The notes under the pieces were generated by a model. That model was not told the origin of the DNA. It searched no databases and worked only from the letters and a program-made list of their open reading frames with translations. A stretch of 61,493 bases of DNA, taken from assembly GCA_049517415.1 (NCBI GenBank), contig JBEKSC010000017.1:1-61493 (forward strand). The letters are read 5' to 3'. The position numbers were made by a program, and so were the translations under genes. The stretch comes from Candidatus Bathyarchaeia archaeon. GTDB taxonomy: Archaea; Thermoproteota; Bathyarchaeia; 40CM-2-53-6. Positions 4,784 through 39,567 of this stretch are shown in pieces (positions within the stretch are counted from its first letter, which is position 1; every line of letters starts with the position of its first letter).

Positions 4784-5431
4784 TCACTTCATGATTCGGA
4801 TGTTAAAGTTCCGGGTTTGATTGACCGCCAACAATCGTAGCCACAGCGCCAAGTACATCTCCGTGCCTCTTGCCGTGGTAATGTCGCCTAGGTCGATGAC
4901 GGATTTCCAGCCAAACCATTCGGTCATGATCTCGTGAACTTTCGCTTTTGCCTTTGCGTCATTTCCGCTCATGAAGATGTCATGGAGCCCCGGGACAATT
5001 TGGGGTGTCACCATTAGAGTGTGGCTTATGGTGTTGAGCGTTTTCACGACCTTTGCGTCAGGGAACGTCCGTTGTATTTGCTCGCCAATCGAATCGGTAT
5101 TGCACACGGTGAGGGTGGGCGGCATGCCCTTAGAGAAATCCAGTGGGTTGGATATATCTACTAGAATTTTATCTTTGAGGTTTCTCGCACCAGCCAACTT
5201 CAATGCCTCTAGCGATACTGCGCCGGCAGTGCAATTGAAGATAATTTCGCCGAATTCGGCGGCTTCAGCGAAAGTACCATTCGAAGCCTTTGCTCCATTG
5301 GCCTTGGCCCACTGTACCGCCTTCTCGTTCCCTGCCGTTCGGGAACCCATTTTTACTTCATGGCCCAACTGGACAAGCTTCGTAGCAATAGTATTCCCAA
5401 CCATTCCCGTCCCCAGGACGCCAAGCTTCAC
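4784..5431 (-). CDS. NADP oxidoreductase, F420-dependent family
   Basis: GVLGTGMVG Rossmann motif, ILVDISNPL, VVKTLNT, IDLGDI..AR. Confidence 0.9.
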   Translation of the reverse strand: MKLGVLGTGMVGNTIATKLVQLGHEVKMGSRTAGNEKAVQWAKANGAKASNGTFAEAAEFGEIIFNCTAGAVSLEALKLAGARNLKDKILVDISNPLDFSKGMPPTLTVCNTDSIGEQIQRTFPDAKVVKTLNTISHTLMVTPQIVPGLHDIFMSGNDAKAKAKVHEIMTEWFGWKSVIDLGDITTARGTEMYLALWLRLLAVNQTRNFNIRIMK

Positions 5432-5511
5432 AATAACGACTCCCTTATGCTCAGCTAGAAGGAAGGGAGTCTAGCTATTTATTGACTACCAACAGCACAT
5501 TGTCGGAGTTC

Positions 5512-6282
5512 TCAAAACGCTTTCAGAAAGAACCAGGCTGAGACAATCAAACCGATTGCGACAATAATGAAGTGCAGCGGGCGAGGGTTGACGTGCTTTG
5601 CAAGCCTTGCGCCTCCGTAGCCACCAATAATCGCGCCAGCCATCATGAGGAGAGCCAAGTACCAGGCGACCAACCCTTTGTATGCGAAGAAGACGAATGC
5701 AGTTAGGTTGATTATGGCGGCGAGGGGCGTCTTCATCGCGTTCATCTTGTGGATGTCACGGAGGCCCATAATGCTGAATGACCCTAACATTAGGATCCCT
5801 ATGCCGGCCCCAAAGTAACCGCCGTATGCCGCCACAAAAAACTGAAAGATGGTCCCCCAGATGCGTCCAGCAGTCGTTACATGCTCATCGCCTGAACTAC
5901 GTCGTAGTCTTCGGGAGATCACGTCCTGTGATGCAAGCATTAGCGTGGCAAAGAGCACTAAGAATGGGACTACTCGGTTGAATAATGCGGGCGTTGTAAA
6001 AACCAGAATTGCAGCCCCCATGAGTCCGCCGATAAAGCTAGGAACGGCGAGCATTAGTAGTAGGCTACGTTGGATCGCGGTATCTTTTCGGTATCCAACC
6101 GCGCCACTAACGGAACCAGGCCACAACGCGGCCGTGTTCGTAGCATTAGAGATGATTTCAGGTTCGCCGAAAGCTACGAGGGACGGAAATGAGATTAGCG
6201 TGCCGCCACCCGCCACAGAATTGATGCCACCAGCAAGCATGCCGGCAAAAAACAGGCCTATCAACCCAACTGAGTCAGCCAT
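5512..6282 (-). CDS. TauE/SafE (TSUP) family transporter
   Basis: AGGINSVAGGGTLISFP and YGGYFGAGIGIL motifs; about 8 TM helices. Confidence 0.92.
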   Translation of the reverse strand: MADSVGLIGLFFAGMLAGGINSVAGGGTLISFPSLVAFGEPEIISNATNTAALWPGSVSGAVGYRKDTAIQRSLLLMLAVPSFIGGLMGAAILVFTTPALFNRVVPFLVLFATLMLASQDVISRRLRRSSGDEHVTTAGRIWGTIFQFFVAAYGGYFGAGIGILMLGSFSIMGLRDIHKMNAMKTPLAAIINLTAFVFFAYKGLVAWYLALLMMAGAIIGGYGGARLAKHVNPRPLHFIIVAIGLIVSAWFFLKAF

Positions 6283-6316: not shown

Positions 6317-9067
6317 CTACGGTATCATCTCAAACCTTGCTGAGAAGAATCTTAGCTGCGGAGGCTCGTAAACCATCCTGAGACCACCTATATTCGCGCG
6401 ATGTTCGTACAGTTGTGAAACGGATTTCGCTACTACTTCCATATGGCTGTTTGTGTAGACACGCCTAGGAATTGTTAACCTGACTAATTCTAGTTCTGGG
6501 TGTTTGTTCCGCCCCGTTTCGTGGTCGCGGCCTGCGGAGACTATGCCTCTTTCCATTGAACGGACGCCTGAATCAACATAGAGTTGCGCGGCGAGTTCTT
6601 GCGCAGGATATTGTTCTTGGGGTATGTGGGGTAAAAAGCGTCTTGCGTCGAGACAGACTGCAAATCCGCCCACGGGCTCAACAATGGGTACCTTAGATTC
6701 GTTAAGAAGCTTTCCTAGGTATTGGACCTGTCTAACGCGGGAGCCAATGTAATCATCATCAACCATCTCGTAGATGCCCCTGGCCAGCGCTTCAATATCT
6801 CTCCCAGACATTCCCCCGTCAAACCGTGTCCCCTCGTAAATAGGAACCAGGCGACACAATCTGTCGTAGATCCTTTTGTCGTTAATTGCGATGAATCCGC
6901 CGATGTTGCCGAGGCAATCTTTCTTACCGCTCATAGTGCAGCCGTCGCTGTAACCCATCATTTCCTTCATAATCTCCTTCACAGGTTTATTTCCGTAGCC
7001 AGGTTCTCGATCTTTTATGAGCCAAGCGTTTTCGGCGCATCGAGTTGCGTCGTAGATTAGCAGTATGCCGTTTTCGTGGCATAACTTGCTAACCTGTTTG
7101 ATGTTGCTGATTGAGAAAGGTTGTCCGGCAGCCATGTTCACTTCAGGCGCTATGCTCACGTAAGCGATTTGATCCGCGCCCCGTTCTTCTATCACATGCC
7201 TCAATTTCTCAAGATCTACGTTTCCTTTGAAGGGGTGCGTGGACCGTGTGTCGTTCGCCTCATCAATTATTACGTCTACGTAGGTTCCGCCGGCCTTCTC
7301 AATGTGCTCTCTAGTCGTCGTAAAGTACATGTTCATCGGCACAAATTGCCCCTTTCTAATCATCGTCTGAGAGAAGATGTGCTCGGCGGCCCTTCCTTGG
7401 TGTGTCGGAAGGACGTAGCGGTAGCCCAGAACTTCGCGTACAGCGTTTTGGAGCGTGAGAAAGTTGGATGAGCCCACTCTTTCATCCCCCAGCATAATCC
7501 CCGCCCACTGGTAGTCACTCATAGCACTCGTGCCGCTGTCCGTGAGCAGGTCGATGTATACGTCCTCCGACCTTAGGAGGAAAGTGTTGTATCCAGCTTC
7601 TGCGATTGAGCGTTCGCGAAATTCGCGTGTCGTGTTAGCGATAGGCTCAACTGATTTGACCCTGTAGGGCTCAGGAACTACAGCTGTTCGAAAACGGGCC
7701 TTCGGCCAAGATTTCCTCACGGTCGAGAAACGTGCGTCTAGAAAATGTGTTCGACTCTGGCTAGTGATCTCTTTTAGGCCTGATATCGCTTTGGTGTTCT
7801 TCGCGGTGAACCTGAGGGCTTCCATAGCGTAGTCGATGTGAAGCGCCGTGTACGTCCGTTTTGGTATGAGAATTGAGAGAATTTCATGGCTAAATCCATT
7901 AAAGAGTGCGTCATGTACGCCAACTCTCACCCCGGTCCAGGCGTACAGGTGCGCTGCAAGAGCCCGTGCCGGGTGCTGATTCCATCTTACTCTACTTAGC
8001 AAATCCTTAGCATCTACGTAAACGCCGTTAGCTCCCAGAGGTTGCAGGACTGGTAGCCCAAACGATTCCAAACCATTTGTCAACCTGCGGATCAGGTTAA
8101 GATTCCATCTGATGTTGCCTTCGTCAGCCATCTCGTAAATGCCCGTAGCGATGGCTTCCATATCTCGTCCGTTCAACCCACCGTAAGTGAACAAGCCTTC
8201 GTAAACGACGACGAGTGCTCTCACTTGCTGGTAGAAAGAATCGTCGTTGCTTGCAATCAATCCGCCAACGTTTGCGTAGCATGCTTCCCTGCAATTTAAT
8301 ATGGCAATGTCAGCTAACCCGGAAATTTCTTTCAAAATCTCTCCGATGCTCTTGCCTGAGTAGCCGTCTTCCCTTTCCCTAACGAACCAAGCGTTCTCAG
8401 CGACATAAGATAGGTCGATGACTAACGGAATATGATGAATCTTGGTGAAATCTCGGAGTTCCCTAAGGTTGGCAATTGAGGTTGGGTGACCGCCCAGAGG
8501 CCCTGAGCAGAGCTTCACGTGAACAAATGAAATTCTGTCGGCACCCACCTCGCCTATGAAATTCTTAAGTTTCCCGACATCGACATTGCCTTTGAATTCG
8601 TAATTGTCATGCAAACCGTAGGTTCCCGAAACATCATATATCTGGGCGCCAGCGCGCCTGAAATGCTCAACCGCCGACGGTGACCCCCAATTCGTCGCAA
8701 CAAAAGTCCCTGGGCGAACTTTGATCTCAGCGACCAGATGCTCTGCTCCACGCCCGTTATGTGTTGGGACAACAAGCCTGAAGCCCAGAACTTCGTTAGT
8801 AGCTTTTTCCATTCTAAAGAAATTTCTACTCCCAGCGTAAGCTTCGTCCCCTATCATCAAGCCGGCCCATTGACGGTCACTCATGGCGCCCGTTCCAGTA
8901 TCTGACAGGAGGTCAATGTAGACTTGATTCGCAGGAAGGAGGTAGACGTTGTAAAACGCCTTCGCCAATGCCCGCCTCCTAGCAATCTCGCGGATGGGAG
9001 GCGTGGGCTGAATTATTTTTAGCTTGTAAGGTTCGGCTGAAGGTTCTTGGCTCACGGACGTAACCAT
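6317..9067 (-). CDS. tpl: Tandem-duplicated tyrosine phenol-lyase (beta-eliminating lyase), 916 aa
   Basis: Two ~455-aa homologous halves, each starting EPY(K/R)xK...YIDLLxD. The C-half has the TPL signatures YFTTTR, DATR, CTMSGKKD, SMERG, RLTIPRR and LRFF. Confidence 0.93.
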   Translation of the reverse strand: MVTSVSQEPSAEPYKLKIIQPTPPIREIARRRALAKAFYNVYLLPANQVYIDLLSDTGTGAMSDRQWAGLMIGDEAYAGSRNFFRMEKATNEVLGFRLVVPTHNGRGAEHLVAEIKVRPGTFVATNWGSPSAVEHFRRAGAQIYDVSGTYGLHDNYEFKGNVDVGKLKNFIGEVGADRISFVHVKLCSGPLGGHPTSIANLRELRDFTKIHHIPLVIDLSYVAENAWFVREREDGYSGKSIGEILKEISGLADIAILNCREACYANVGGLIASNDDSFYQQVRALVVVYEGLFTYGGLNGRDMEAIATGIYEMADEGNIRWNLNLIRRLTNGLESFGLPVLQPLGANGVYVDAKDLLSRVRWNQHPARALAAHLYAWTGVRVGVHDALFNGFSHEILSILIPKRTYTALHIDYAMEALRFTAKNTKAISGLKEITSQSRTHFLDARFSTVRKSWPKARFRTAVVPEPYRVKSVEPIANTTREFRERSIAEAGYNTFLLRSEDVYIDLLTDSGTSAMSDYQWAGIMLGDERVGSSNFLTLQNAVREVLGYRYVLPTHQGRAAEHIFSQTMIRKGQFVPMNMYFTTTREHIEKAGGTYVDVIIDEANDTRSTHPFKGNVDLEKLRHVIEERGADQIAYVSIAPEVNMAAGQPFSISNIKQVSKLCHENGILLIYDATRCAENAWLIKDREPGYGNKPVKEIMKEMMGYSDGCTMSGKKDCLGNIGGFIAINDKRIYDRLCRLVPIYEGTRFDGGMSGRDIEALARGIYEMVDDDYIGSRVRQVQYLGKLLNESKVPIVEPVGGFAVCLDARRFLPHIPQEQYPAQELAAQLYVDSGVRSMERGIVSAGRDHETGRNKHPELELVRLTIPRRVYTNSHMEVVAKSVSQLYEHRANIGGLRMVYEPPQLRFFSARFEMIP

Positions 9068-27673: not shown

Positions 27674-29044
27674 TTGCCAATTTTGCCGATAGATTCCGGT
27701 CGGTATGGGTCACCGGAGATTCGGAGGGTGTTTGAAGATGAGACGCGGTTTCAAAAGATGCTTGATGTCGAAGCAGCTTTGGCTTGGGCAAGGGGGCAGG
27801 TTGGGGATATCCCCCGAGAGGCAGCTGAGGAAATTGAACGTCACGCAACGACTCGGCACGTCAAATTAGAGAGGATTCGCGAGATCGAAAAAACTGTCGA
27901 CCATGAGACCATGGCCCTCGTCGAAGCCCTTTCGGAGGTCTCGGGGAAGGGCGGAGCATTCGTGCACCTCGGTGCAACATCTTCGGACATTCTCGATTCC
28001 GGATTGGCGTTGCAGATGCGAGAGGGCTTGGACATAGTCGCAGCGAAACTGAACCAGCTTGAGGAAGCTCTCCTAGGTCTTTCGAAGAAGTATAGGGACA
28101 CGATGGGGATTGGCCGAACTCATGCTCAACATGCGTTGCCCATGACCTTGGGGCTCAAGTTCGCCGTCTGGTTACGCGAAGTCGGCAGGCACATCGAGCG
28201 CCTCAACCAGTGCAGGGAGCGAGTGCTTGTCGGGAAGTTGAGCGGCGCCGTCGGAACAATGGCTGGGTTTGGAAAGAACGCTCGCAAGATTCAGGAACTA
28301 GCTATGAAACACCTCGGGCTTCGAATTGCCGATGTCACTAGTCAGATCGTTCAGCGTGATAGGTACGCGGAATTGGTCTGCGTCTTTGCAATCATTGCTA
28401 GTTCCTTGGACAAGTTTGCGGTCGAAATCAGGAATTTGCAAAGGCCTGAGATTGATGAATTAGGTGAGCCATTTGATGTCGACAAACAGGTTGGAAGTTC
28501 CGCAATGCCCCAGAAAAGGAATCCTTGGAGAAGTGAAAATGTTTCCAGCCTCGCCAAGATAGAGCGAAGCCTTGTGGCGCCTGCGTTGGAGGGTATTGTG
28601 ACGTGGCACGAACGTGATCTATCGCAATCGGCTTCGGAGCGTTTTGTCATCCCGGAATCCTTCATATTGATTGATCACATGCTGAATTCGATGATTCGAA
28701 TTCTAGGGGGCTTGAGAGTTAATGAGAGGCGCATGTTAGAAAATTTGGAGAAATTCAAAGACCCGATGATGTCAGAGGCCATTATGATAGCGCTCGTAAG
28801 CAAGGGGATGCCGCGGCAAGAAGCTCATAAACTGCTGCAGCAACTAGTTTTCCACAGCCAAGAGAAGAGCAAACGGTTCAGTGAAGTCCTGGAGGGTGAT
28901 ACAAGAATAATGAAGTATTTGAAGAAGGATGATATCTACTTGGCTTTGAACCCGAAGTCATACTTGGGCTTGTCAAGCGAGCTTGTCGACGCGGCCGTTG
29001 AAAAAACGGTGACCGAACGTAAGGCACGAGGGCTCGCAACCTAA
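27674..29044 (+). CDS. purB: Adenylosuccinate lyase
   Basis: VHLGATSSDI, GRTHAQHA, GSSAMPQKRNP, WHERDL; start inferred at TTG 27674. Confidence 0.95.
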   Translation: MPILPIDSGRYGSPEIRRVFEDETRFQKMLDVEAALAWARGQVGDIPREAAEEIERHATTRHVKLERIREIEKTVDHETMALVEALSEVSGKGGAFVHLGATSSDILDSGLALQMREGLDIVAAKLNQLEEALLGLSKKYRDTMGIGRTHAQHALPMTLGLKFAVWLREVGRHIERLNQCRERVLVGKLSGAVGTMAGFGKNARKIQELAMKHLGLRIADVTSQIVQRDRYAELVCVFAIIASSLDKFAVEIRNLQRPEIDELGEPFDVDKQVGSSAMPQKRNPWRSENVSSLAKIERSLVAPALEGIVTWHERDLSQSASERFVIPESFILIDHMLNSMIRILGGLRVNERRMLENLEKFKDPMMSEAIMIALVSKGMPRQEAHKLLQQLVFHSQEKSKRFSEVLEGDTRIMKYLKKDDIYLALNPKSYLGLSSELVDAAVEKTVTERKARGLAT

Positions 29045-31302
29045 AGGCTTTCGTCCTCCCGGTAATCGGTCAGAAGGCTCTGCTCCGTTGTCTCAACCGT
29101 CTTAGATTTCAACGTCTCCCACTCTTCGGCCTTAATGAGGCCGCCCACTTGCTCTTTGATCTTCTTAGCCAGCGATGGTCCGATTAATGGAACGTTCATC
29201 AGGTCTGTCACGGAGGCGTGTTTTAGATCGTCAAGGTGTCTGTACCCAGCATTGAACAATGAGCGCGCCCTTATGCGTCCTACACCGTCGAGTTCAACCA
29301 GAGGAACGAGTTCAGACTTGACCCCCTTAGCGCATCGAATCTGTAGTTCGTAGGTTGGGGCCAGAAGGTCCTTGTGTCCGAACAGCTCAGCCAACTGATA
29401 AGTCGCATGCAAAAGCCACCTGGAAGTGTCAACCATCCTTAGCATGTCGCCCGGTTCAACCTTGTGGACTTCAAGTATTCCGTCCTCGCTAGTTTCATTG
29501 ATCCATTCATACATGACCCTCGCGCACTTGATCTCTGCCAAAAATTCTTCATAGGTCACACCATTCGTATCGCCGAAGTACTCAGGAGTTTCACACATGA
29601 ATTCGTCTTCGTGCTCCTTCGCGAAAAGATCAAGCATTTCATCTTCTCCGCGTCGCGGGTAGAGCTTAGGAGATATGTCTGGCGTTCGTGATATTAGATG
29701 CAGGAAGCTTACCTCAGTTACGTGTTTGGCGCGGGTATACAATCCGTCACGGAGGACCACCGCTGACACGGGGTCTATGTATAGTTCTGAGACTCGCCGG
29801 CCGAATTTGGTGGCCTTCAAATCTTCGCCCTCGAATTCAACCATTTGTTCCCTATGAAGGAAAGAGAGTATTTCGCCGAGCTTTCCCTTAATCATCTTAG
29901 GGTTGTATTGGAAAGCGTAGAAGGTCTTCGCGAAAAATCTAGTTAATCCATCCTCAGTGTTGGCGAACCGCGTGGCGATGGTAGCCAAGACGTGAGGCCT
30001 GAGAACTTTCTCAGCCCCCAGTTTCGACCAGATTCTTTCAGGCTCTGCAAGCGCGTAGTTCTTCAGAAGGTAGTCCTGTTCATCTTCTGTCTTGGCAATG
30101 AGGATGGCCTCACCATACTTATCATACTTAGGCCTACCCGCCCGGCCACAAAACTGCTTATACTCCAAAACCGAAATTGGGTAACGCCCGTACCCAGCCT
30201 CATACCTCTCATAGCTGCTAATGATCACCGTTCTCGCGGGGAGGTTTACTCCGGCAGCCAATGTCGGGGTTGCCGAAAGAATTTTCAGCCGGCCAGCCTT
30301 GAACGCATCCTCAATAATCTTACGATGGGGACCCGGCAAACCTGCGTGGTGGAAGGCCACCCCATTCAGGGCTTGTTCCGCCAAAACGTCCCCTAGGCGT
30401 GTCCTTTCGCCGGTCGCGAGAATTCTTTGGGCAAGGTTTTCCAGAGCCCTACGGTCCGGTTTAGGCATGTGCCTTCTAAGAAGTGCCGCTGCCTTCTTAC
30501 CCATTTCCACGGCAGTGCGCCGGGTTTCAGCGAAGATTAGAACTTGACCGCCGTCCCGCACTACTTCAAGCGCTGTGTCAAAAATCGGGTTCATGTCAGT
30601 GTGTGGGATGAAGCGCGAGGACCCATCCTTGAATTGAATTTGCCCATTACAATAGACGCCTTCCCTGAGTGGGACGGGCCGCCACTCCGTAGTAATCGGG
30701 ATGCCTTTGAGCCATTCACCAATCTCCGTTGCGTTCTTGATGGTCGCGCTCAAAGCTATGATCTGAATTTGCGGGTTGAGTTTGAGTAAGCGGGTTAGTA
30801 CGACTTCAAGGGTCGGGCCCCTGTCGGCTTCAGTGATGAGGTGAATTTCATCGGCGACAACTACCGAAACCTCCGCAATCCAGGGTGAGCGGTGTCTTAG
30901 GAGTGAATCGGCTTTCTCGTTTGTAGAAATGATGACGTCGTAGTTGGCGAGGTATACGTCGGAACTATCGTAATCCCCGCTGGTAACGGCTACCCTTACC
31001 TTTCGGCCTGGTGCTTTTTCAACGGATGTATACTTTTGGAAGTCTTCGTACTTCTCACTTGCCAGCGCTCGCAACGGTGTGAGGTATAGGGCTTTTCCGC
31101 CCTTCTCGACTATTGATTTGAGAACTACCATTTCTGCGACAAGGGTCTTTCCAGAGGCCGTTGGGCTTGCTAGAACGATGTTCTTGCCCTTCAATGCCCC
31201 AGCTTTGATAGCATCCTCTTGGGGAGGGTACAGTATGTCGTAGCCCGCTTTAGCTAGAACGGCCTTAACAGCGTCTGGGATGGCTAGTTCGTCAACCCGC
31301 AA
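29041..31302 (-). CDS. hel308: Ski2-like ATP-dependent DNA helicase Hel308
   Basis: PTASGKT, DEIH, LSAT, FHHAGL, TPTLAAGVNLPA, GRAGRP, C-terminal GVGRIRARSL. Confidence 0.95.
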   Translation of the reverse strand: MRVDELAIPDAVKAVLAKAGYDILYPPQEDAIKAGALKGKNIVLASPTASGKTLVAEMVVLKSIVEKGGKALYLTPLRALASEKYEDFQKYTSVEKAPGRKVRVAVTSGDYDSSDVYLANYDVIISTNEKADSLLRHRSPWIAEVSVVVADEIHLITEADRGPTLEVVLTRLLKLNPQIQIIALSATIKNATEIGEWLKGIPITTEWRPVPLREGVYCNGQIQFKDGSSRFIPHTDMNPIFDTALEVVRDGGQVLIFAETRRTAVEMGKKAAALLRRHMPKPDRRALENLAQRILATGERTRLGDVLAEQALNGVAFHHAGLPGPHRKIIEDAFKAGRLKILSATPTLAAGVNLPARTVIISSYERYEAGYGRYPISVLEYKQFCGRAGRPKYDKYGEAILIAKTEDEQDYLLKNYALAEPERIWSKLGAEKVLRPHVLATIATRFANTEDGLTRFFAKTFYAFQYNPKMIKGKLGEILSFLHREQMVEFEGEDLKATKFGRRVSELYIDPVSAVVLRDGLYTRAKHVTEVSFLHLISRTPDISPKLYPRRGEDEMLDLFAKEHEDEFMCETPEYFGDTNGVTYEEFLAEIKCARVMYEWINETSEDGILEVHKVEPGDMLRMVDTSRWLLHATYQLAELFGHKDLLAPTYELQIRCAKGVKSELVPLVELDGVGRIRARSLFNAGYRHLDDLKHASVTDLMNVPLIGPSLAKKIKEQVGGLIKAEEWETLKSKTVETTEQSLLTDYREDESL

Positions 31303-31318
31303 CGCAGGGAGGCCTCTG

Positions 31319-33361
31319 TCAAGCAGCTGTTCGCTTCAAGTGGCCAGGCTTGGGCGAGTAAAGTATTCCTTCCCTGACTAATTGGTCGACCAGCCTTCTT
31401 GCGTCTTCGTCTGTTACGTCAACCTTCCGCGAAAGTGCCTGGTACAGCGTCGAGTCTTCGACGATTCCCAACTGCTTCTCCAAATCAGCGAACGTGCTCA
31501 GGACCACCTGCATCTTATCTCTCAAGCTCTTGGGCTTGCCCGTCATTATGACATCAATGTCCATCTTCCCAGTACTCGTGTCGATGCCCACGTCCTGCAG
31601 TGATAGCGTCATTAGCCGAATTATGCTGCGGGCGTCCTCAGCTTCAACACGGTCACGCAAAAAGCTCCTAGCCCTTGCTTCAGACAATCTAACTAGCGCT
31701 TCGAGCTGTCTGGGTGTTATGACAACGGGTGATTCTGATGAGCCGGACATCGAACGCATCTTAAGGTAATACTGCCTAATCTCATTCACAGCCTCTTCGG
31801 ACAGGACTGGTTCGACGCGCTTGGCGTACGCAATATACTTGCGTAGTAGGTCGGGAAGGAGTGGTGGCTGCTCTGGAGTAGTCTTCAACCTGTGAAGGGT
31901 GAGTATGTGTTCCGACATTCTTCTATCCGAGTCGGGTTCTGGAACATCCTTCATGATGAAGAGTAGGTCGAAACGTGTCAGTAACGTTACGGGTAGGCTA
32001 ATGTTATCCGTGATGTTCCGGTACGGGTCATATCTCCCCAAACTTGGGTTGGCAGCCGCGAGAACGGCGGCCCTTGCGTTTAGTGTCGCAACGATCCCTC
32101 CCTTGGCTACGCTGACGGTGTGCTGCTCCAGCGCCTCGTGTATCGCCACTCGATCTTCTGGGCGCATCTTGTCAACTTCGTCGATGCAAGCGACCCCTTT
32201 ATCGGCCAGGACAAGGGCGCCCGCTTCTAGCACCATTCCTCCCGATTTTTCGCGGACTACTGCGGCGGTTAAGCCGGCGGCTGTTGTGCCGCGGCCGCTT
32301 GTGTATAGCCCTCGGGGTGCGATTCGTGCAACGTATTGTAGCAATTGACTTTTCGCCACTCCCGGGTCTCCCACGAGGAGAACGTTGATCTCGCTTCGTA
32401 TCGAGACACCATCAGGGAGTCGCTTGGGTACTCCCCCAAAGAGGAGGTACAGGACAGCTTCTTTGATATCCCCGTAACCATAGATGGATGGGGCTAATGA
32501 GGCGATTAGCTTACGGTGGATGAATGGGTCTTTTGCCAGTTCCCTTATCAGCCTCTCATCCTCAGGCGTTATTTCTACAACCTCAATCTCCTTCCCCATG
32601 ATGTCAACATAGTTGGCGTCGAGGAGAAGTTCGAATGTTCGTAGCCTCGCCTTTCGGCCGGCGAACTCTTGCTGCGCCCGTGCAATGCCTATTATTGATA
32701 CGCGGTCGCCAGGGCGGGCGATGTCGACTAGGTCCTCCGAGAGCTTGATGTCGACTGCCCTCGGTAGCTGGCCAGGGGGAAGGTCTTCAGGCCGCTCTTG
32801 AATGCGGATTTCCTGGGAGTTCATGAAGATCGACATTTTCTCCATGAATTCAAAAACTTTCGAGCGACAATGGGCGCAGACTCCGGGCCCGCGCATCAAT
32901 GTTCCCGCCTGTTCGACATAGCTCATGGCGTTGCACTTGCGGCATTGGAAGGCTGCTTTGAGAAGCAAAGGTTTGACGGATGTTGATCGCACGATTATGC
33001 CATCGATCGATAGCAACCGGCCAATGTTTTCCGATCCGATCTTGCGTAGGGAATGTTTCTCCGGCAGTTTTCTAAAACGAACGCGAAGGCGTTTTATGAC
33101 CTCAGCGTATTCAGGATCCTCGATCTTGAGTTGCGCCCAGGCGCTTCGGTCTAAGTATTCCAAGTACTCGTCGGGTTTATCAAGAATGGAGCGGGCGAGG
33201 TCTGCATCATGGGCTATGAGGTCTTCAAAATCAACAATGATTGATCTAAAGCCGGAGAGTGCCACGTGGCCTAGGCGCTTTCTGTATTTGTACTCCTCGT
33301 CAGCCCTGAAAGTCCTGAGGAAGTCTTGAAAACGTTCCTCGGGGTTTTGGAGCGTGGTCAC
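31319..33361 (-). CDS. mcm: Replicative helicase MCM (no intein)
   Basis: CRKC/CAHC Zn finger, GDPGVAKSQ, GLTAAV, IDEVDKM, AAANP, TRFD, ITPRQLE, C-terminal winged helix. Confidence 0.98.
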   Translation of the reverse strand: MTTLQNPEERFQDFLRTFRADEEYKYRKRLGHVALSGFRSIIVDFEDLIAHDADLARSILDKPDEYLEYLDRSAWAQLKIEDPEYAEVIKRLRVRFRKLPEKHSLRKIGSENIGRLLSIDGIIVRSTSVKPLLLKAAFQCRKCNAMSYVEQAGTLMRGPGVCAHCRSKVFEFMEKMSIFMNSQEIRIQERPEDLPPGQLPRAVDIKLSEDLVDIARPGDRVSIIGIARAQQEFAGRKARLRTFELLLDANYVDIMGKEIEVVEITPEDERLIRELAKDPFIHRKLIASLAPSIYGYGDIKEAVLYLLFGGVPKRLPDGVSIRSEINVLLVGDPGVAKSQLLQYVARIAPRGLYTSGRGTTAAGLTAAVVREKSGGMVLEAGALVLADKGVACIDEVDKMRPEDRVAIHEALEQHTVSVAKGGIVATLNARAAVLAAANPSLGRYDPYRNITDNISLPVTLLTRFDLLFIMKDVPEPDSDRRMSEHILTLHRLKTTPEQPPLLPDLLRKYIAYAKRVEPVLSEEAVNEIRQYYLKMRSMSGSSESPVVITPRQLEALVRLSEARARSFLRDRVEAEDARSIIRLMTLSLQDVGIDTSTGKMDIDVIMTGKPKSLRDKMQVVLSTFADLEKQLGIVEDSTLYQALSRKVDVTDEDARRLVDQLVREGILYSPKPGHLKRTAA

Positions 33362-33918
33362 GCCTTCAATTCCTGCCCAAGAAGTTTAGATTTCCAATTC
33401 TCAATGATTTTGTTCAGAGTAGAATAGAGAACCCGTTCTTCGTACGTCAAACCCTGAATGAGTTCCTCTGAGGGTGTCGGGGAGGCCGCGATGGAAACTA
33501 TCTTTCGAAGCCTGCAATTGACGATGTCGCGCACCAAGCTTTCGCTTCTTTCAAGTTCCCGAAGCTTTACTTGGTCTTGTCTGCTCAACTGATGGAGCTC
33601 AGCTAGGTGCCGCCTAAGTAGGCAGTAGAAGTTTGCCTGCAGTGCTGGCAATTGCCTCGACGCTGGAATGGTCTCCCTCCAGTGAATTTTCGACAACGAA
33701 TTATAGTTGAGAACATCCTCTTCTCTGAATCTTGCGTACCCTAACTGGACGAGTTCCTTCGCGGTCCAATATGGAACTACCACTTCTTGCCCAACTTTCG
33801 CGGAGGACAGTTTCGCCATCCTAGGTGTTTCGGGCAACTCCCGGGTCACGACTACCCGGAACTGAGAGTTTTCAAAATCAAAGTCAACGTCGTCGACTGA
33901 CATCAAGGCCTCTGCCAA
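33358..33918 (-). CDS. GINS subunit (Gins23-type)
   Basis: VPYWTAKELVQLG, RLRKIV, LTYEERVLY; stop overlaps the mcm start. Confidence 0.85.
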   Translation of the reverse strand: MAEALMSVDDVDFDFENSQFRVVVTRELPETPRMAKLSSAKVGQEVVVPYWTAKELVQLGYARFREEDVLNYNSLSKIHWRETIPASRQLPALQANFYCLLRRHLAELHQLSRQDQVKLRELERSESLVRDIVNCRLRKIVSIAASPTPSEELIQGLTYEERVLYSTLNKIIENWKSKLLGQELKA

Positions 33919-33996
33919 GAATGAACCACCAAACCCGTAACCCGCTCTTTTCCAAGTTAAACCCTTAACTCGAATTCTTTTTGCTATTCAGTCGAG

Positions 33997-34010
33997 ATTT
34001 CCATTGGAGC
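33997..34010 (-). promoter_or_regulatory. ORB-like (Orc1/Cdc6-binding) box 1
   Basis: Minus strand GCTCCAATGGAAAT versus archaeal ORB core GTTCCAGTGGAAA(C/T). Confidence 0.45.
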
Positions 34011-34120
34011 GACAAACGCGACGGGAGAGACGGCTGAAAGTGTAATGGACGTTTTCAGATGCATCATAAGCACGCCTTCCGGAGTGGGCCAATGCTTTTG
34101 AAGGTGGATTGTAAACTTCA

Positions 34121-34134
34121 GTTGCACTGGAAAT
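34121..34134 (+). promoter_or_regulatory. ORB-like box 2, inverted relative to box 1
   Basis: GTTGCACTGGAAAT; no G-string follows. Confidence 0.4.
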
Positions 34135-34165
34135 CGAACGTGTGATTGGACGCGGTGGAGAAAAA

Positions 34166-35146
34166 TTGAGCCAAGGCAACGTCATGTGGATCGAAAAGTA
34201 TAGGCCCAAGTCTCTCGACGAAGTCTTCAACCAAAAGGAAACGGTCGAAGGAATCAGAGCGTTACTGAAAACGCCTGCAACGATGCCGCATTTTCTTTTT
34301 GCGGGCCCCCCGGGCACTGGAAAAAGCACGGTTGCTCTTTGTGTGGCCCGGCAATTGATGGGTGAAAGTTTTCGCAGCCTGGTTTTGGAGTTGAATGCTT
34401 CTGATGAGCGCGGAATCGGTGTTGTTCGCGAGCGAATCAAAGGGTTCTCGCAGATAATTCAGTCCACCCCGTCAGGGGTTCAATTCGGCCTCGTCATTCT
34501 TGACGAATGCGACGAAATGACTCGGGACGCCCAAACTGCGCTTAGGAGAATCATGGAGACCTCATCCAGAACCTGTCGCTTCATACTCATCTGTAACTAT
34601 CAGAGTGGCATCATAGAACCTATCCAAAGCCGATGTTCCGTTTTCCGGTTTAGGAGATTGGAGAAACCAGAAGCTATCGAATACCTAGCGAAGATTTGCA
34701 AATCTGAAGGAGTAGACGCAGATTCAAGGGCCGTTGAACGTATTTTCGAAATCTCGGAGGGTGATCTTCGAAGAGCGGTCAACTTCCTTCAGGTCGCTGC
34801 GACGAGCACGAAAGGTGGAAAACTGGATTTGAAGGCACTTGACAAGACGGTGCCGGAAGCCCAGAGCGAGCTTATCGATGAGATGTTAAAGTTCGCCCTA
34901 CAAGGCGAGTTCATGAAGTCGCGAGACGTAATGTATGAGCTGATGGGTAAACACGGCGTCAGCGGAAGAGAAATCATCCGTGGAGCTAACCGTGAAATCA
35001 GCCGCATGCCAGAAACTTCGGGCGATAAGCAGGCTGAGATTGTGCGTGCACTCGGTGAGTGTGATTTTAGGTTAACGCAGGGTGCGAACGAGGATATTCA
35101 ACTCAGCGCCATGTTGGCCCAGTTGAGTGTGATTGGAAGAAAGTAG
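34166..35146 (+). CDS. rfcS: Replication factor C small subunit
   Basis: WIEKYRP, GPPGTGKS, ELNASDERGI, LDECD, IQSRC, GDLRRA; start uncertain (34142, 34166 or 34184). Confidence 0.97.
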   Translation: MSQGNVMWIEKYRPKSLDEVFNQKETVEGIRALLKTPATMPHFLFAGPPGTGKSTVALCVARQLMGESFRSLVLELNASDERGIGVVRERIKGFSQIIQSTPSGVQFGLVILDECDEMTRDAQTALRRIMETSSRTCRFILICNYQSGIIEPIQSRCSVFRFRRLEKPEAIEYLAKICKSEGVDADSRAVERIFEISEGDLRRAVNFLQVAATSTKGGKLDLKALDKTVPEAQSELIDEMLKFALQGEFMKSRDVMYELMGKHGVSGREIIRGANREISRMPETSGDKQAEIVRALGECDFRLTQGANEDIQLSAMLAQLSVIGRK

Positions 35147-36941
35147 CGTGCAAGCGCTTCAAAGTGTCGCTTGGACAGAGAAGTACCGCCCCCTGTCCAC
35201 AGCTGCACTTCTGGGCAACGAGGAATCAGTTGAGGCATTCAAGGCCTGGATGAAGCAATGGACCTTGAAGAGGAAACCCACAAAGGCATGCCTCCTAGTC
35301 GGGCCACCTGGGGTAGGAAAAACAACGCTCGCCAGAGCCGCTGCGAACGATTTCCAGTTCCGAGTCATCGAGATGAATGCAAGCGACATCAGGACTGAGA
35401 AAGCCATCAAGAACTTGCTCGCTCCCGCAAGGTCATCTGTAACGCTCGACAGCTTCACCTCCGACAGTCGAGGAAATTTGGTTCTCATGGACGAGGTGGA
35501 TGGTGTTTTTGGGCGGGAAGACCGCGGAGGGTTGGGAGGGATTCTTTCAGTAATCAAACAGTCGCCCGTGCCAATTGTCCTGACGGCTAACAATGTAGAC
35601 GACGAAAAGTTTGACGACCTTAAGAAGGCCTGCATTGTCGTCCCCCTTGTTGAAATTCGCCCTCGACTGTTGCTGCTGCTAATCAACCATACACTTGCCG
35701 AAGAGGGACGCTCAGTTCCTGAAAAGGCAAGGAGACGAATTGCGAGCGAAAGTCATGGGGACATAAGATCCGCGGTCAATGACATTCAAACCGTCGCAAC
35801 CAGCGGCGCCGTTAACTTACGTCCGGAACGAACGAGGAGGCTAGATGAAAAAAGCACGTTAAGGGGACTATTTGCTTCCCGAGGAGTAGGCGAAGCCAGA
35901 CGCGCCCTCAACGAGACTGAGATTCCTCTTTACCGCGACGAACTGCTCCTGCTGGTTCACGACCTACTACCGTACCTGTACACTACGCCCATCAAATTAG
36001 CGAAAGCCTACGACAGCCTCTCCCGCGCGGACATTGGGTATGGCAGGGTTGGTGCGAGCCGTTCCCGTGGCATGATGCCGCCCCCATTCAACCAGCCGCG
36101 CAGGGACGCGGTGCCAGAATGGAGCCTTCTGCCCGTCGCACTGAACGAATTGGCCTCGGTGGGAACGGACCCAGTGGATAACGACATAGAGCATGCGATG
36201 GATGTAGCCCCACTGCTCTCGAGGAAAATTGTCGATCGTTACCAGTACCGACTCTGGGCGTTGGACCACCTGTCCGGCAGAATAGCCAGGGCGTGCCATA
36301 TGTCGAAACGTAAGGCGTTGCATGAAGTTGTTCCGTTCCTAGTTGCAATTTTCAAATCCGATGGGGAGCGGGGCCGAGAAATTGCGCTGAGCTTGGAAGC
36401 GGAGGAGCGGGACATAGACTTCCTGGTTTCAGAATCTAAGACGCAAGCTGCTGTGAAGGGCCCTAAGGAGGTTCTTGATCCGACGGGCTTCAAGTTGCCG
36501 TACATGGGCAAAGACAAGTTCATCCAACTCATGCGAGCTGGCATCAGCTACGATAGGAGCGGCGGCAAGTTCGCCGTGCGTCGCCTCGACAACCTTGACA
36601 CGGTTGAGGAAAGGTTGTCGGACATAATGGCGAGGCCTATCAAATTCCAACGTCCTGAGCAAACTGCGACAGAAGTTGAGGGCAAGGTAGTCAAGGAATG
36701 CTACGTGGACGAACGGAAAATTATTTGCGAGGAATGCGATTTCATTGAGAATTGCCCAACACACATAATCCCATCTCTGAAGTTTTGTATCTGCGATCAA
36801 ACGCTTTCAGACCCGACAGGTTATGAAAAGTATCTGGCAAAGAACGGCATGGCTGCGAAGGCAGCTAAAGCACCTAAGCCGGTTAAGGCGGCCAAGAAGA
36901 CGAACGGGGCGAAGCGGGCTGTGACCCGCAAGAAGGGTTAA
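35133..36941 (+). CDS. rfcL: Replication factor C large subunit with C-terminal Cys-rich extension
   Basis: WTEKYRP, GPPGVGKTT, EMNASDIR, DEVDG, GDIRSAVNDIQ; follows rfcS. Confidence 0.93.
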   Translation: MEESSVQALQSVAWTEKYRPLSTAALLGNEESVEAFKAWMKQWTLKRKPTKACLLVGPPGVGKTTLARAAANDFQFRVIEMNASDIRTEKAIKNLLAPARSSVTLDSFTSDSRGNLVLMDEVDGVFGREDRGGLGGILSVIKQSPVPIVLTANNVDDEKFDDLKKACIVVPLVEIRPRLLLLLINHTLAEEGRSVPEKARRRIASESHGDIRSAVNDIQTVATSGAVNLRPERTRRLDEKSTLRGLFASRGVGEARRALNETEIPLYRDELLLLVHDLLPYLYTTPIKLAKAYDSLSRADIGYGRVGASRSRGMMPPPFNQPRRDAVPEWSLLPVALNELASVGTDPVDNDIEHAMDVAPLLSRKIVDRYQYRLWALDHLSGRIARACHMSKRKALHEVVPFLVAIFKSDGERGREIALSLEAEERDIDFLVSESKTQAAVKGPKEVLDPTGFKLPYMGKDKFIQLMRAGISYDRSGGKFAVRRLDNLDTVEERLSDIMARPIKFQRPEQTATEVEGKVVKECYVDERKIICEECDFIENCPTHIIPSLKFCICDQTLSDPTGYEKYLAKNGMAAKAAKAPKPVKAAKKTNGAKRAVTRKKG

Positions 36942-36986
36942 CCTTGGAATGTTCACCCACGCCAGCGCAGGTTTGAGTTTCAATAT

Positions 36987-37158
36987 GTGGTGTAGTTTTC
37001 TGGGGGATTTCGGCCGCGCGCACGCTTGGAAGACCCCTAGCGGGGGTGGTGCACTTTTTGGGGTCCGACGGGGCTGATTTCGCAACCTTTCCCGTCGCAC
37101 GCTAGGTTGCGTGCGCACGTTTTTGGCGAGGGGGGGGTGGTGGCGTAGTTTTGTGGGG
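36987..37158 (+). repeat. Three copies of an 18-19-nt motif GTGGYGYASTTTT(S)TGGGG in a G-rich intergenic region
   Basis: 36987 gtggtgtagttttctgggg; 37046 gtggtgcactttttgggg; 37140 gtggcgtagttttgtgggg. Confidence 0.7.
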
Positions 37159-37259
37159 AAGGCATATTACTCATCCCAAACGGCGGTGGAGAATAAGGCT
37201 TGAGGGAGGCCACGCAAAATCTCGTCAGTGAAATGAGCGGGGTGTCTTTGAAACGTCTG

Positions 37260-37793
37260 TTAATGTTCGTGAGCTATCCTGATGATGTGCCCTAGTTCCG
37301 GAAGTATCAGCTTCTCCATGGCTGTTTGAACGGCATCCGGTGATCCTGGAAGACAGAAGATCGCTTTTCCTTTGCTCGTTCCCGCGAATGCGCGGCTAAG
37401 AATAGCTGAAGAGCCGATACTTTCAAAACTGATTTTCCTGAAGATTTCGCCAAAACCGGGGATTATTCTGTCAACGAGCGGGGCGATGCTCTCTGGGGTC
37501 ACGTCCCTCGGGGAGAGCCCCGTCCCACCAGTAATGATTACCGCGTCAACCTTGCTAGATCTGAGGGCCTGTTTTGTTGATTTGATTATCATGGGTTTGG
37601 AGTCGGAGATCAGCTTGCGCCCTTCAATTCTGTGGCCCGCCGCCACGGCAAGACGCTGAATAATGTCCCCAGAGGCATCATCGGGCTCCTGACCTGCCTT
37701 GAGTTGATTGAACCTTGACGTGCTGCATGTTATGATGTAGATTCCGACCGACCTTGGCGCCGACGCCTTGTGGAGTTCCGGAACTTTGGCCAT
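37260..37793 (-). CDS. moaB: Molybdopterin adenylyltransferase MoaB/MogA
   Basis: DDASG, TGGTGLSPRDVTPE, PGFGE, LSRA, LPGSP. Confidence 0.93.
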   Translation of the reverse strand: MAKVPELHKASAPRSVGIYIITCSTSRFNQLKAGQEPDDASGDIIQRLAVAAGHRIEGRKLISDSKPMIIKSTKQALRSSKVDAVIITGGTGLSPRDVTPESIAPLVDRIIPGFGEIFRKISFESIGSSAILSRAFAGTSKGKAIFCLPGSPDAVQTAMEKLILPELGHIIRIAHEH

Positions 37794-38237
37794 TTATCTT
37801 CGCTTAATTTTCTTTATCACTCTGATGTTCTCGATCGCGGTGTTTGGGTATTGGCCTTTCCCGTCCTTCTCGTACTGCTTCACCATGTCCCAGATGGTGA
37901 GTAGATAGGTTGCGGTTGCTGTTAGTGCCTCCATCTCAACCCCAGTCTTAGCTTGCCCCTTCACATATGATTCCACCTTCAACGTATCTCCAACATAGGA
38001 GTGCTCGGTACGCACCGTTGTTATCGGAATCGAGTGGCAGAAAGGAAGCATCTGGGGCGTGCTCTTCGCTGCCATGATTGCCGCCACCTCCGCCGCAGCA
38101 ATGGCATCCCCCTTCCCAATCCTACCCGACCTAAGCCGCGCGATCGTGCCTGGCTTCAACCTAATCTCGCCCACCGCCGTAGCTTCCCTCATAACCACTT
38201 CCTTTGGCGAGATGTCAACCATCGAGAAACGGCGCAT
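37794..38237 (-). CDS. moaC: Cyclic pyranopterin monophosphate synthase MoaC
   Basis: MVDISPK, KGD, LPFCH, KTGVEMEALT, TIWDMVK. Confidence 0.96.
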   Translation of the reverse strand: MRRFSMVDISPKEVVMREATAVGEIRLKPGTIARLRSGRIGKGDAIAAAEVAAIMAAKSTPQMLPFCHSIPITTVRTEHSYVGDTLKVESYVKGQAKTGVEMEALTATATYLLTIWDMVKQYEKDGKGQYPNTAIENIRVIKKIKRR

Positions 38238-38316
38238 TCTCCATCAACCTCTTGCCCCACGTTAACGCCGCGCTAGCAAATTAGCTATTACGCTCGGGGG
38301 GATGGTACGAGCCGGT

Positions 38317-39567
38317 TTACTTTCGCTGTACGCGTTTCTTCCGACTTGTGGTTAGTGCGGCCTCTAGTTGTTCGCGCATAGTTGTGGCTGGTATGTTTTG
38401 TAGGCCGAGTAGGGTTGTTTTGCCGCGTACGCCTTCGCCCGATTTTGAGGCCGTTATTACGCCAATGGCGCCTAGGCCGCGGGCGTACTTCCAGATCTGG
38501 GTGTGCTTTCTGGGTTTGTCATCGTACTCTTCACAAACAGCCTTGTACTCGCGTTCAACAACGCCTATAGTAGCGTAGGCTTCCTGTGATTCCCCAAGAA
38601 CCCTCGCTAAGGCTAGCAGCATGTATTTTTCGTGGGATGATAGGGCGGCGATGTATTCGCCCCTGAGCATCGGGTAAACGCTTCCGGCAGCCTTCCGCAC
38701 ATGGTCGGTTAGAATGTGCTTTGCACTTTCAGAGTCAGCGTATTTTCCGGCGCGCCAGAGTAGTTCGATTGAGTACCTGGCGTCACCGCTCTGGCCGCCT
38801 ATGTCGGCGACGAGTTGAAGCGCCTCGTCGGCCACGGTATTCTCTTTGAAAGCTAAACCAACGCGGTCTTTGAGAATGTCAATTAGTTGGCGGGAATTGT
38901 ACTTGTCGAGTTTAACGATATTCCGTTGCAGGGTGTCGGTAGTGCTCTTGTCGAGTTTTTGGAGGTATTCAATCTCGCGGAGTATGAGGATGAGTGAGAG
39001 CCGTATCGGTTTGCCAACCCTTTCCTCTTGGATGCGGGTTAGGTTGTAGATGGGCGTTGATTCTTCCACTCTTATTAGGTGTTCAAGTTCGTCGAGTGCG
39101 AGTATGAGGTGTATGTTCTTGTCGTCGAGCATGTCCATGAGGGTGTGGAGAAGTTCCTCGGGCGCGAAACCCCGCTTCGGAAATTCAGGTTCGAACTGGG
39201 TTAGGACTCGTTTTAGGATCATGAAGAGGCTGCCTTTCGCTTCGCGGCAGTTCACGTGAACGTAGTGAAGGTTGACCTTGCGGTTTCTCGCAGCCTTAAC
39301 AAGGTCTGTCCCGAAACGTTGGGCGAGTACCGTCTTGCCGGTTCCCACGTCGCCCGTGATGAGGACGCGTTGGCTTGTGGAGAAGGGGCTGTCGAGCGTG
39401 AAGCGGAAGAGTTGGGTGAGAAAACGCATTTGCTCGTCGCGGTGGGGAAGCTTACGGGGTATGTATTCCAATGAGAGGGGCGCTTCGTCTTTGAAGACTG
39501 TGGGCCTTTCCAAAGTCTCCTTAACAATATCTGAAGACAATTGAACGAGAGCCCCTACTCTCGACAT
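38317..39567 (-). CDS. cdc6: Orc1/Cdc6 replication initiator
   Basis: YIPRKLPHR, GDVGTGKT, HVNCR, LDELE, GDARYSIELL, C-terminal winged helix GVRGKTT. Confidence 0.96.
   Translation of the reverse strand: MSRVGALVQLSSDIVKETLERPTVFKDEAPLSLEYIPRKLPHRDEQMRFLTQLFRFTLDSPFSTSQRVLITGDVGTGKTVLAQRFGTDLVKAARNRKVNLHYVHVNCREAKGSLFMILKRVLTQFEPEFPKRGFAPEELLHTLMDMLDDKNIHLILALDELEHLIRVEESTPIYNLTRIQEERVGKPIRLSLILILREIEYLQKLDKSTTDTLQRNIVKLDKYNSRQLIDILKDRVGLAFKENTVADEALQLVADIGGQSGDARYSIELLWRAGKYADSESAKHILTDHVRKAAGSVYPMLRGEYIAALSSHEKYMLLALARVLGESQEAYATIGVVEREYKAVCEEYDDKPRKHTQIWKYARGLGAIGVITASKSGEGVRGKTTLLGLQNIPATTMREQLEAALTTSRKKRVQRK

Follow-up and report, generated by a model that had tools for sequence, protein, structure and literature searches.

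A single-chain tandem tyrosine phenol-lyase with reciprocal loss of active-site residues in a Bathyarchaeia archaeon

Tyrosine phenol-lyase (TPL) is a textbook and industrial pyridoxal 5'-phosphate (PLP) enzyme, used for L-DOPA production, and to our knowledge every description of it is of a homotetramer whose four sites are equal. Here we describe a gene encoding two unlike TPL copies in one chain, found in the metagenome-assembled genome (MAG) of a Candidatus Bathyarchaeia archaeon (assembly GCA_049517415.1) at positions 6317..9067, on the minus strand, of contig JBEKSC010000017.1; the whole stretch of this contig that was analysed, 61,493 nucleotides, is referred to below as the window. In published accounts, canonical TPL (EC 4.1.99.2) is described as a homotetramer of identical subunits of 456 amino acids (aa) with four PLP sites, and the enzyme of the Citrobacter freundii type as using Tyr71 as general acid, Arg381 as base and Lys257 as the PLP lysine, in a site placed at the interface with the neighbouring subunit (PMC10170061). 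[quoted passage not shown] Thr124, Met288, Met379, Arg381 and Phe448 are given as residues specific to TPL relative to TIL (PMC5805759).

The C-terminal half of the new protein resembles C. freundii and Erwinia herbicola TPL (2ez1 and 1c7g) in fold and family, in the residues for PLP and substrate and in four of the five TPL-specific residues, and the chain as a whole resembles them in an active site that would be shared across a dimer interface. It differs from the canonical enzyme in having two unlike copies per chain, each with one side of the shared site, and in leucine at position 288; as each copy keeps only one side, one of the two sites is lost. The principle is already known in another fold-type-I subfamily, that of serine palmitoyltransferase (SPT), where LCB2 has the PLP site and its paralogue LCB1 is thought not to bind PLP (PMC5519370), and where LCB1 and LCB2 are fused in one gene in most genomes of the coccolithoviruses (EhV) (PMC5371807). 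SPT thus shares with the tandem TPL a fold-type-I PLP enzyme, a catalytic paralogue joined by one believed not to bind PLP and, in Emiliania huxleyi viruses, the single-chain fusion; it differs in belonging to the alpha-oxoamine synthase subfamily, in its chemistry and in being eukaryotic or viral and membrane-bound. Reciprocal loss of donated residues was not found described in these SPT papers, and the likeness is best regarded as an analogy, not as homology of the fusion event. The trypanosome AdoMetDC/prozyme pair, whose live member depends for activity on a catalytically dead paralogue (PMC5201418), differs further: it consists of separate polypeptides with an unrelated fold and mechanism, and the live member is activated by relief of autoinhibition, not by residue donation. 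A search of full-text literature, in which most subscription journals were not covered, found no published description of a tandem, fused, duplicated or pseudoenzyme TPL or tryptophanase like this one, in line with the original prediction, made from the DNA alone, that no such TPL had been described. What appears new is that such an arrangement occurs in TPL, that the loss is so cleanly reciprocal and that the family is so broad.

Architecture and residue pattern of the two halves

The open reading frame runs uninterrupted from an ATG at 9067 to a stop at 6317-6319 and comprises 916 codons plus stop. Pfam Beta_elim_lyase (PF01212) matches the whole chain in two stretches with 382.7 bits against a cut-off of 27, and in a search of the genome both halves were above the cut-off (249.9 and 137.8 bits). 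Against NCBIfam TIGR02618 (tyr_phenol_ly) the whole chain has a score of 1114.8 bits, the sum of two stretches; scored singly, the C-half reaches 717.7 and the N-half 402.1 bits, the equivalog cut-off being 720.7 per TPL unit. Residues 1-456 and 457-916 align with each other end to end (451 columns, 37% identity, E 7e-109), as expected from the two fused TPL copies of the original prediction. The N-half (residues 1-450, 7718..9067) scores 341 bits against the solved TPL of C. freundii (2ez1); it is a TPL-fold pseudoenzyme domain that has lost the PLP lysine and other residues of its own site. The C-half (residues 466-916, 6320..7672) scores 589 bits against Erwinia TPL (1c7g) and is predicted to be catalytically complete except for the residues that it would itself donate. 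Between them lies the linker RKSWPKARFRTAVVP (residues 451-465, 7673..7717), which is in frame, contains no stop and was modelled with a predicted local distance difference test score (pLDDT) of 84-96. The genome was found to hold no other TPL-like gene, its best other PF01212 match being a 357-codon frame on a different contig.

C. freundii numbering was transferred through printed alignments to 2ez1 and 1c7g, in which the positions of Asp214, Arg217, Lys257, Met288, Tyr291, Met379, Arg381, Arg404 and Phe448/449 were counted. The coordinates of the motifs in the window were checked by translation, and all motifs quoted in the original prediction were present at the verified coordinates.

The C-half keeps the residues of its own site: Gln557, Arg559, Phe582, Thr583, Asn644, Asp673, Arg676, Ser713, Lys715, the PLP lysine Lys716, Met838, Arg840, Arg863, Phe907 and Phe908. 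They are accompanied by the motifs NMYFTTTR, DATR, MSGKKD (residues 712-717, 6917..6934, with Lys716), VRSMERG and VRLTIP; the codons of Arg840 (equivalent to Arg381) and of Arg863 (equivalent to Arg404, which binds the substrate carboxylate) bound the stretch 6479..6550. Its two donor segments are degenerate. In the loop GDERVGS (residues 527-533, 7469..7489) the Tyr71 position is deleted, and in YEGTRFDGG (residues 744-752, 6812..6838) Thr747 stands for Met288 and Asp750 for Tyr291.

The N-half shows the reverse. It keeps GDEAYAGS (residues 73-80, 8828..8851), with Glu75 and Tyr77 as the equivalents of Glu69 and the general acid Tyr71, and YEGLFTYGG (residues 289-297, 8177..8203), with Leu292 and Tyr295 at the positions of Met288 and Tyr291. 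Its own site is eroded to NWGSPSA, DLSY, LNCREA and LSILIP: Ser129 and Pro130 replace Phe123 and Thr124, Tyr221 replaces Arg217, Asn258 replaces Ser254, Glu261 (8285..8287) occupies the position of the PLP lysine, Met379-Arg381 are deleted and Ser398 replaces Arg404. The set of PLP-lysine and phosphate-site residues (Lys257, Asp214, Arg217, Ser254, Gln98 and Arg100) is complete in the C-half and incomplete in the N-half, and the PLP lysine is present in one half only, unlike in a homotetramer of identical subunits.

Conservation and origin of the family

A homologue search gave 1116 matches at E ≤0.001 with lengths of 503-1603 aa, and the best 120 were aligned; 119 of these 120 are at least 850 aa long. 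The spacer between the columns of Phe447 and Glu466 has a median of 21 residues (range 12-31) in the 120 relatives. Seventeen residues, chosen beforehand with reference to the C. freundii structure, were scored, 13 of them as own-site and four as donated.

In the C-halves all 13 own-site residues are found in 118-120 of the 120 proteins: the equivalents of Lys256, Lys257, Arg381, Arg404, Phe123, Thr124, Phe448, Phe449, Gln98, Arg100 and Asp214 in every one, and those of Asn185 and Arg217 in 118; the Met379 equivalent is likewise invariant. At the same positions of the N-halves, leaving aside the Asp214 equivalent (115/120), the commonest residue reaches 56% at most, and the Lys257 position holds glutamate in 58, glutamine in 49 and lysine in three. 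The donated residues follow the opposite course. In the N-halves Glu69 is kept in 118, Tyr71 in 117, leucine at position 288 in 118 and Tyr291 in 118, the motif GDEAYAG being nearly invariant; in the C-halves Tyr71 and Tyr291 are each found in two, and Glu69 is partly kept (E in 72, D in 41). The reciprocal pattern that the original prediction described for one protein, with the suggestion that a search be made for lyases of about 900 aa sharing it, thus held across this set with four exceptions: P0011 and P0012 (discussed below), P0105, whose N-half has a lysine at position 257 but lacks the arginines, and P0033, which is truncated (788 aa). As a separate observation, 52 of the 120 C-halves have a tyrosine in the column that follows that of Tyr71 on the downstream side, as part of a ...TPY... 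motif (the region of residues 530-532 in P0001); the site served by this tyrosine would be one without lysine.

Conservation along the chain was counted in the 117 sequences that remain when P0011, P0012 and P0033 are taken from the 120 (alignment A1). Positions conserved to at least 90% number 53 of 440 in the N-half and 163 of 451 in the C-half, and 21 positions reach 90% in the N-half while staying below 60% in the C-half. Nineteen of these 21 fall within residues 73-86 and 286-307, the two donor segments (hypergeometric P 2e-21, with segment limits drawn after the data had been seen); the remaining two, Lys17 and Leu34, lie in the N-terminal arm outside the pocket. The C-half is the more conserved in all 6786 of 6786 pairs, with a mean identity of 60.5% against 39.3%, and the pairwise identities of the two halves correlate (r = 0.96). 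The alignment shows that the N-half has lost the lysine and, judged by conservation, has been retained under selection. The concentration of N-half-only conservation in the donor segments indicates purifying selection for a specific function of this half, to which neutral decay does not fit. In the proteins with the most eroded N-halves (P0123, P0125 and P0156), the C-half profile detects only the stretches around the equivalents of Tyr71 and Leu288/Tyr291.

For the phylogeny, 29 fused proteins of the main type were cut into halves and analysed with FastTree together with five further tandem proteins and 60 relatives of one domain. Main-type N-halves fall into one split (support 0.999) and main-type C-halves into a second (0.982), which points to a single origin of the family. 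Four subclades are mirrored in the N- and C-halves (support 0.87-1.0), and the patristic distances of the halves correlate with r = 0.95 at an N/C ratio of 2.31, which fits a single ancient duplication and fusion, followed by co-divergence in which the N-half would have evolved faster (about 2.3-fold). The fused forms cluster apart from single-domain TPLs, and the C-half clade groups weakly (0.80) with single-domain proteins of canonical TPL type. Members come from Deltaproteobacteria, Nitrospirota including the cultured Nitrospira calida, Elusimicrobiota, Riflebacteria, Myxococcales and Bathyarchaeia. We consider it reasonably probable that these proteins are a broad family of single-chain PLP lyases that arose by one TPL duplication and fusion, followed by reciprocal decay of one shared site, with the dead half kept as tyrosine donor and dimer partner; this judgement includes the family's having been overlooked partly because NCBI products are trimmed to the C-half.

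When 1.84 billion representatives were searched exhaustively with the N-half (phmmer), 3306 matches at E ≤0.001 were obtained. Among the 150 of these that were listed, 11 are tandem chains of 847-928 aa, and no clear stand-alone N-like protein is present. Three candidates for a free N-like pseudo-subunit (P0195, P0177 and P0215) were rejected as fragments of fused genes, since their tails run through the linker into the beginning of a C-half, or continue in a shifted frame.

Tandem lyases of other kinds were also encountered. P0011 (927 aa) and P0012 (944 aa; from a Chroococcales cyanobacterium) have a different asymmetry: their C-half is fully canonical, including Tyr71 and Tyr291, and their N-half keeps Lys257 and Arg404, with phenylalanine at 71, cysteine at 291 and no Arg381. 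As their C-halves sit among single-domain TPLs in the tree, a separate fusion event is suggested. P0121, P0122, P0126 and P0127 (864-909 aa) are tandem subtypes with a PLP lysine in both halves, and in P0122 Tyr71 and Tyr291 are lost in the C-half only; these four may represent steps on the way to the loss of one site, or may have been invented separately. All six resemble the main family in length (about 850-945 aa) and in having a pair of PF01212 domains and differ from it in the PLP lysine of both halves and in other combinations of losses, and in the tree their halves belong to neither the main N clade nor the main C clade.

A scan of genome contigs with the family alignment returned mostly single-domain TPLs, since one search pattern also fits canonical TPL, and only two of the 80 loci kept were fused (L012 and L056). 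At one further locus, in a Bacteroidetes MAG (L064:4106-6868), a tryptophanase-like gene and a canonical TPL gene (457 and 460 aa) lie next to each other in one frame, with TAA and six bases between them. It was rejected as a split, two-gene version of the tandem protein, both genes being catalytically complete paralogues and not an N-like/C-like pair; the arrangement could resemble a state before fusion.

A predicted composite site and its alternatives

AlphaFold2, run on alignment A1 for the whole chain, gave a mean pLDDT of 93.8 and a predicted template-modelling score of 0.93, with the N-half domain well folded (pLDDT about 90 or higher). Foldseek returned TPL chains with template-modelling scores of 0.96-0.98 over one half, 55-57% identical to the C-half; among the matches listed, no solved chain covers both halves (all TMq ≤0.49). 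The C-half, the N-half and PLP were then modelled as separate chains. The complex scored 0.91 in three runs, with at least 94% contact agreement and a partner pLDDT of at least 90, and the best of three controls scored 0.00. That mark was attained by 116 of 157 solved complexes, as against two of 215 mismatched pairs, counts that are only roughly valid here, as an own alignment and a riding ligand were used. The modelled interface brings N-half residues 74-81, 287-293 and 297-302 against C-half residues 512-514, 556-560, 584 and 721-722. Glu69 forms the K+ site of TPL together with Gly52 and Asn262, and the modelled Glu75 contacts C-half residues 512, 513 and 721, the equivalents of Gly52 and Asn262. 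Tyr77 of the N-half lies in this modelled interface, where it would be a partner-supplied general acid for one site only, the corresponding C-half position being deleted. In the models, the halves are packed with the geometry of the TPL catalytic dimer.

We therefore propose, on models and conservation together, that the two halves pack against each other as the subunits do in an ordinary TPL catalytic dimer. In this proposal the C-half would bind PLP at Lys716, aided by Asp673, Arg676, Ser713, Gln557, Arg559 and Phe582, and would hold L-tyrosine with Arg863, Thr583, Arg840, Met838 and Phe907/908. The N-half would reach over the interface with the general acid Tyr77, with Leu292 and Tyr295, and with Glu75 of the cation site. 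The mirror-image site, made of the N-half pocket and the C-half loops, would lack essentials on both sides and be dead. With a single PLP on each 916-aa chain, the enzyme would split L-tyrosine into phenol, pyruvate and ammonium, and two chains would probably pair into a pseudo-tetramer. As a whole, we hold this explanation to be quite likely. It is that of the original prediction, which had seen one composite site and a second site degenerate on both sides, had argued for selection rather than decay and had looked to structure prediction for the position of the N-half tyrosine. The modelled packing with Tyr77 in the interface agrees with it, as do the reciprocal conservation and the mirrored phylogenies, which also speak for selection; the second site is degenerate as described, the N-half being without the lysine and the substrate-binding arginines and the C-half without Tyr71 and Tyr291.

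That the fusion is an artefact of assembly or gene calling is scarcely credible. The sampled words of the gene were recovered in full (100%) from twenty public metagenome runs of soil, wetland and peat, with no RNA run among those listed; in four of four runs a single contig covers 6160-9400 with 0 differences (the source sample may account for some of them), and the architecture is common to more than 100 divergent relatives; mis-assembly, which the original prediction had kept in view, is refuted by the junction-spanning contigs together with the fused relatives. Gene calling does lend some substance to another possible explanation, in which the enzyme is a stand-alone C-half made from an internal start and the N-half is untranslated or a functionless relic. 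The NCBI protein at 6317-7720 (minus strand) begins at the GTG codon of Val450 (7718..7720) and has 467 aa, that is, residues 450-916, and in Nitrospira calida, too, the RefSeq tryptophanase (465 aa) comes from the end of a 923-codon frame; both products are C-half only, so the NCBI annotation hides the N-half. We regard this explanation as very improbable. There is no stop between the halves, nearly all of the best relatives are of full tandem length, the N-half is strongly and position-specifically conserved, and no clear free N-like partner appeared among the 150 representatives listed, the three candidates being fragments of fused genes. Moreover, the annotated product alone would be without the catalytic tyrosine: as the C-half has neither Tyr71 nor Tyr291, a dimer of C-halves would have no general acid, and the C-half would appear to need the N-half.

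The composite site itself has points that weigh against it. Donation of Tyr71, Met288, Tyr291 and Glu69 by the partner subunit is carried over from C. freundii TPL, and the explicit published statement of such donation cited here concerns the TIL homologue. The pass of the complex model may reflect the model's memory of solved TPL homodimers, and as such homodimers are solved, it shows likeness, not binding. The C-half stays just under the TIGR02618 cut-off, by 3 bits, and the donated Met288 position is leucine, for which reason the substrate specificity may differ. These last two points, and the separation of the fused forms from single-domain TPLs in the tree, would also suit a composite site acting on a substrate other than tyrosine, for instance in another beta-elimination or beta-substitution. 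We think this rather unlikely: the equivalents of Thr124, Met379, Arg381, Phe448 and Phe449 are invariant in the C-half, and the C-half clade lies, at its weak support, with canonical TPL-type proteins. Four of the five residues that separate TPL from TIL (Thr124, Met379, Arg381 and Phe448; PMC5805759) are of TPL type in the C-half, the fifth, position 288, coming from the N-half as leucine, which makes L-tyrosine the most likely substrate. The N-half, finally, keeps the Asp214 equivalent and several glycines, and three of the 120 N-halves keep a lysine at 257, so that residual ligand binding in the dead pocket is possible. The original prediction had gone further and suggested that the doubly degenerate second pocket, beside a working composite site, could now serve as an allosteric site for a regulatory ligand. 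The pocket is indeed framed by a well-folded domain, with the Asp214 equivalent retained and glutamate or glutamine at the lysine position in 107 of 120 proteins. No pocket-lining position is conserved specifically in the N-half, however: N-half-only conservation is confined to the donor segments and to Lys17 and Leu34 of the N-terminal arm, and the phosphate-, ring- and carboxylate-binding positions carry many different residues across the family. A regulatory role thus appears distinctly unlikely, and a single composite site remains the explanation that we prefer.

Host, neighbourhood and meaning

The host genome is a 2.65-Mb archaeal MAG with ribosomal protein L15e and an archaeal small subunit rRNA (1463.8 bits). 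The archaeal origin of the contig follows from a cluster of replication genes at 29044-39567 of the window, comprising a Hel308-like helicase with archaeal domain 4 (29044-31302), MCM (31322-33361), GINS (33361-33918), the RFC small subunit (34142-35143), an AAA protein (35133-36938) and Cdc6/Orc1 (38320-39567); a replication origin may be close to the contig. The tandem protein has its nearest named relatives in Candidatus Bathyarchaeia MAGs, at 69% identity. Among 150 sampled genomes of the same class, 15 have a single-domain relative at E ≤1e-30, 33-37% identical and in frames of 428-518 codons, and no fused form was found among those searched, which suggests that the fused gene was acquired horizontally from a mainly bacterial family.

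In the region 4784-6282 (minus strand), the lyase is followed 34 bases after its stop by a gene for a TauE/SafE-family membrane protein and then by one for an F420_oxidored-like NADP oxidoreductase; co-transcription is possible from this arrangement. No conserved gene neighbourhood was found, the fused loci L012 and L056 having unrelated neighbours.

A catalytic dimer welded into one chain with one site would be direct evolutionary evidence that the donated residues (Tyr71, position 288, Tyr291 and Glu69) are indispensable, and that a single site per dimer suffices for function. With both sides of the shared site on one polypeptide, each can be mutated independently, which is impossible in a homo-oligomer. 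If the explanation is true, the family amounts to nature's own test of whether both dimer sites are needed in fold-type-I PLP enzymes, and it offers a scaffold ready for asymmetric TPL engineering. It would also, as far as the sequences can tell, likely extend phenol-forming tyrosine breakdown to archaea of peat and wetland and to nitrite oxidisers.

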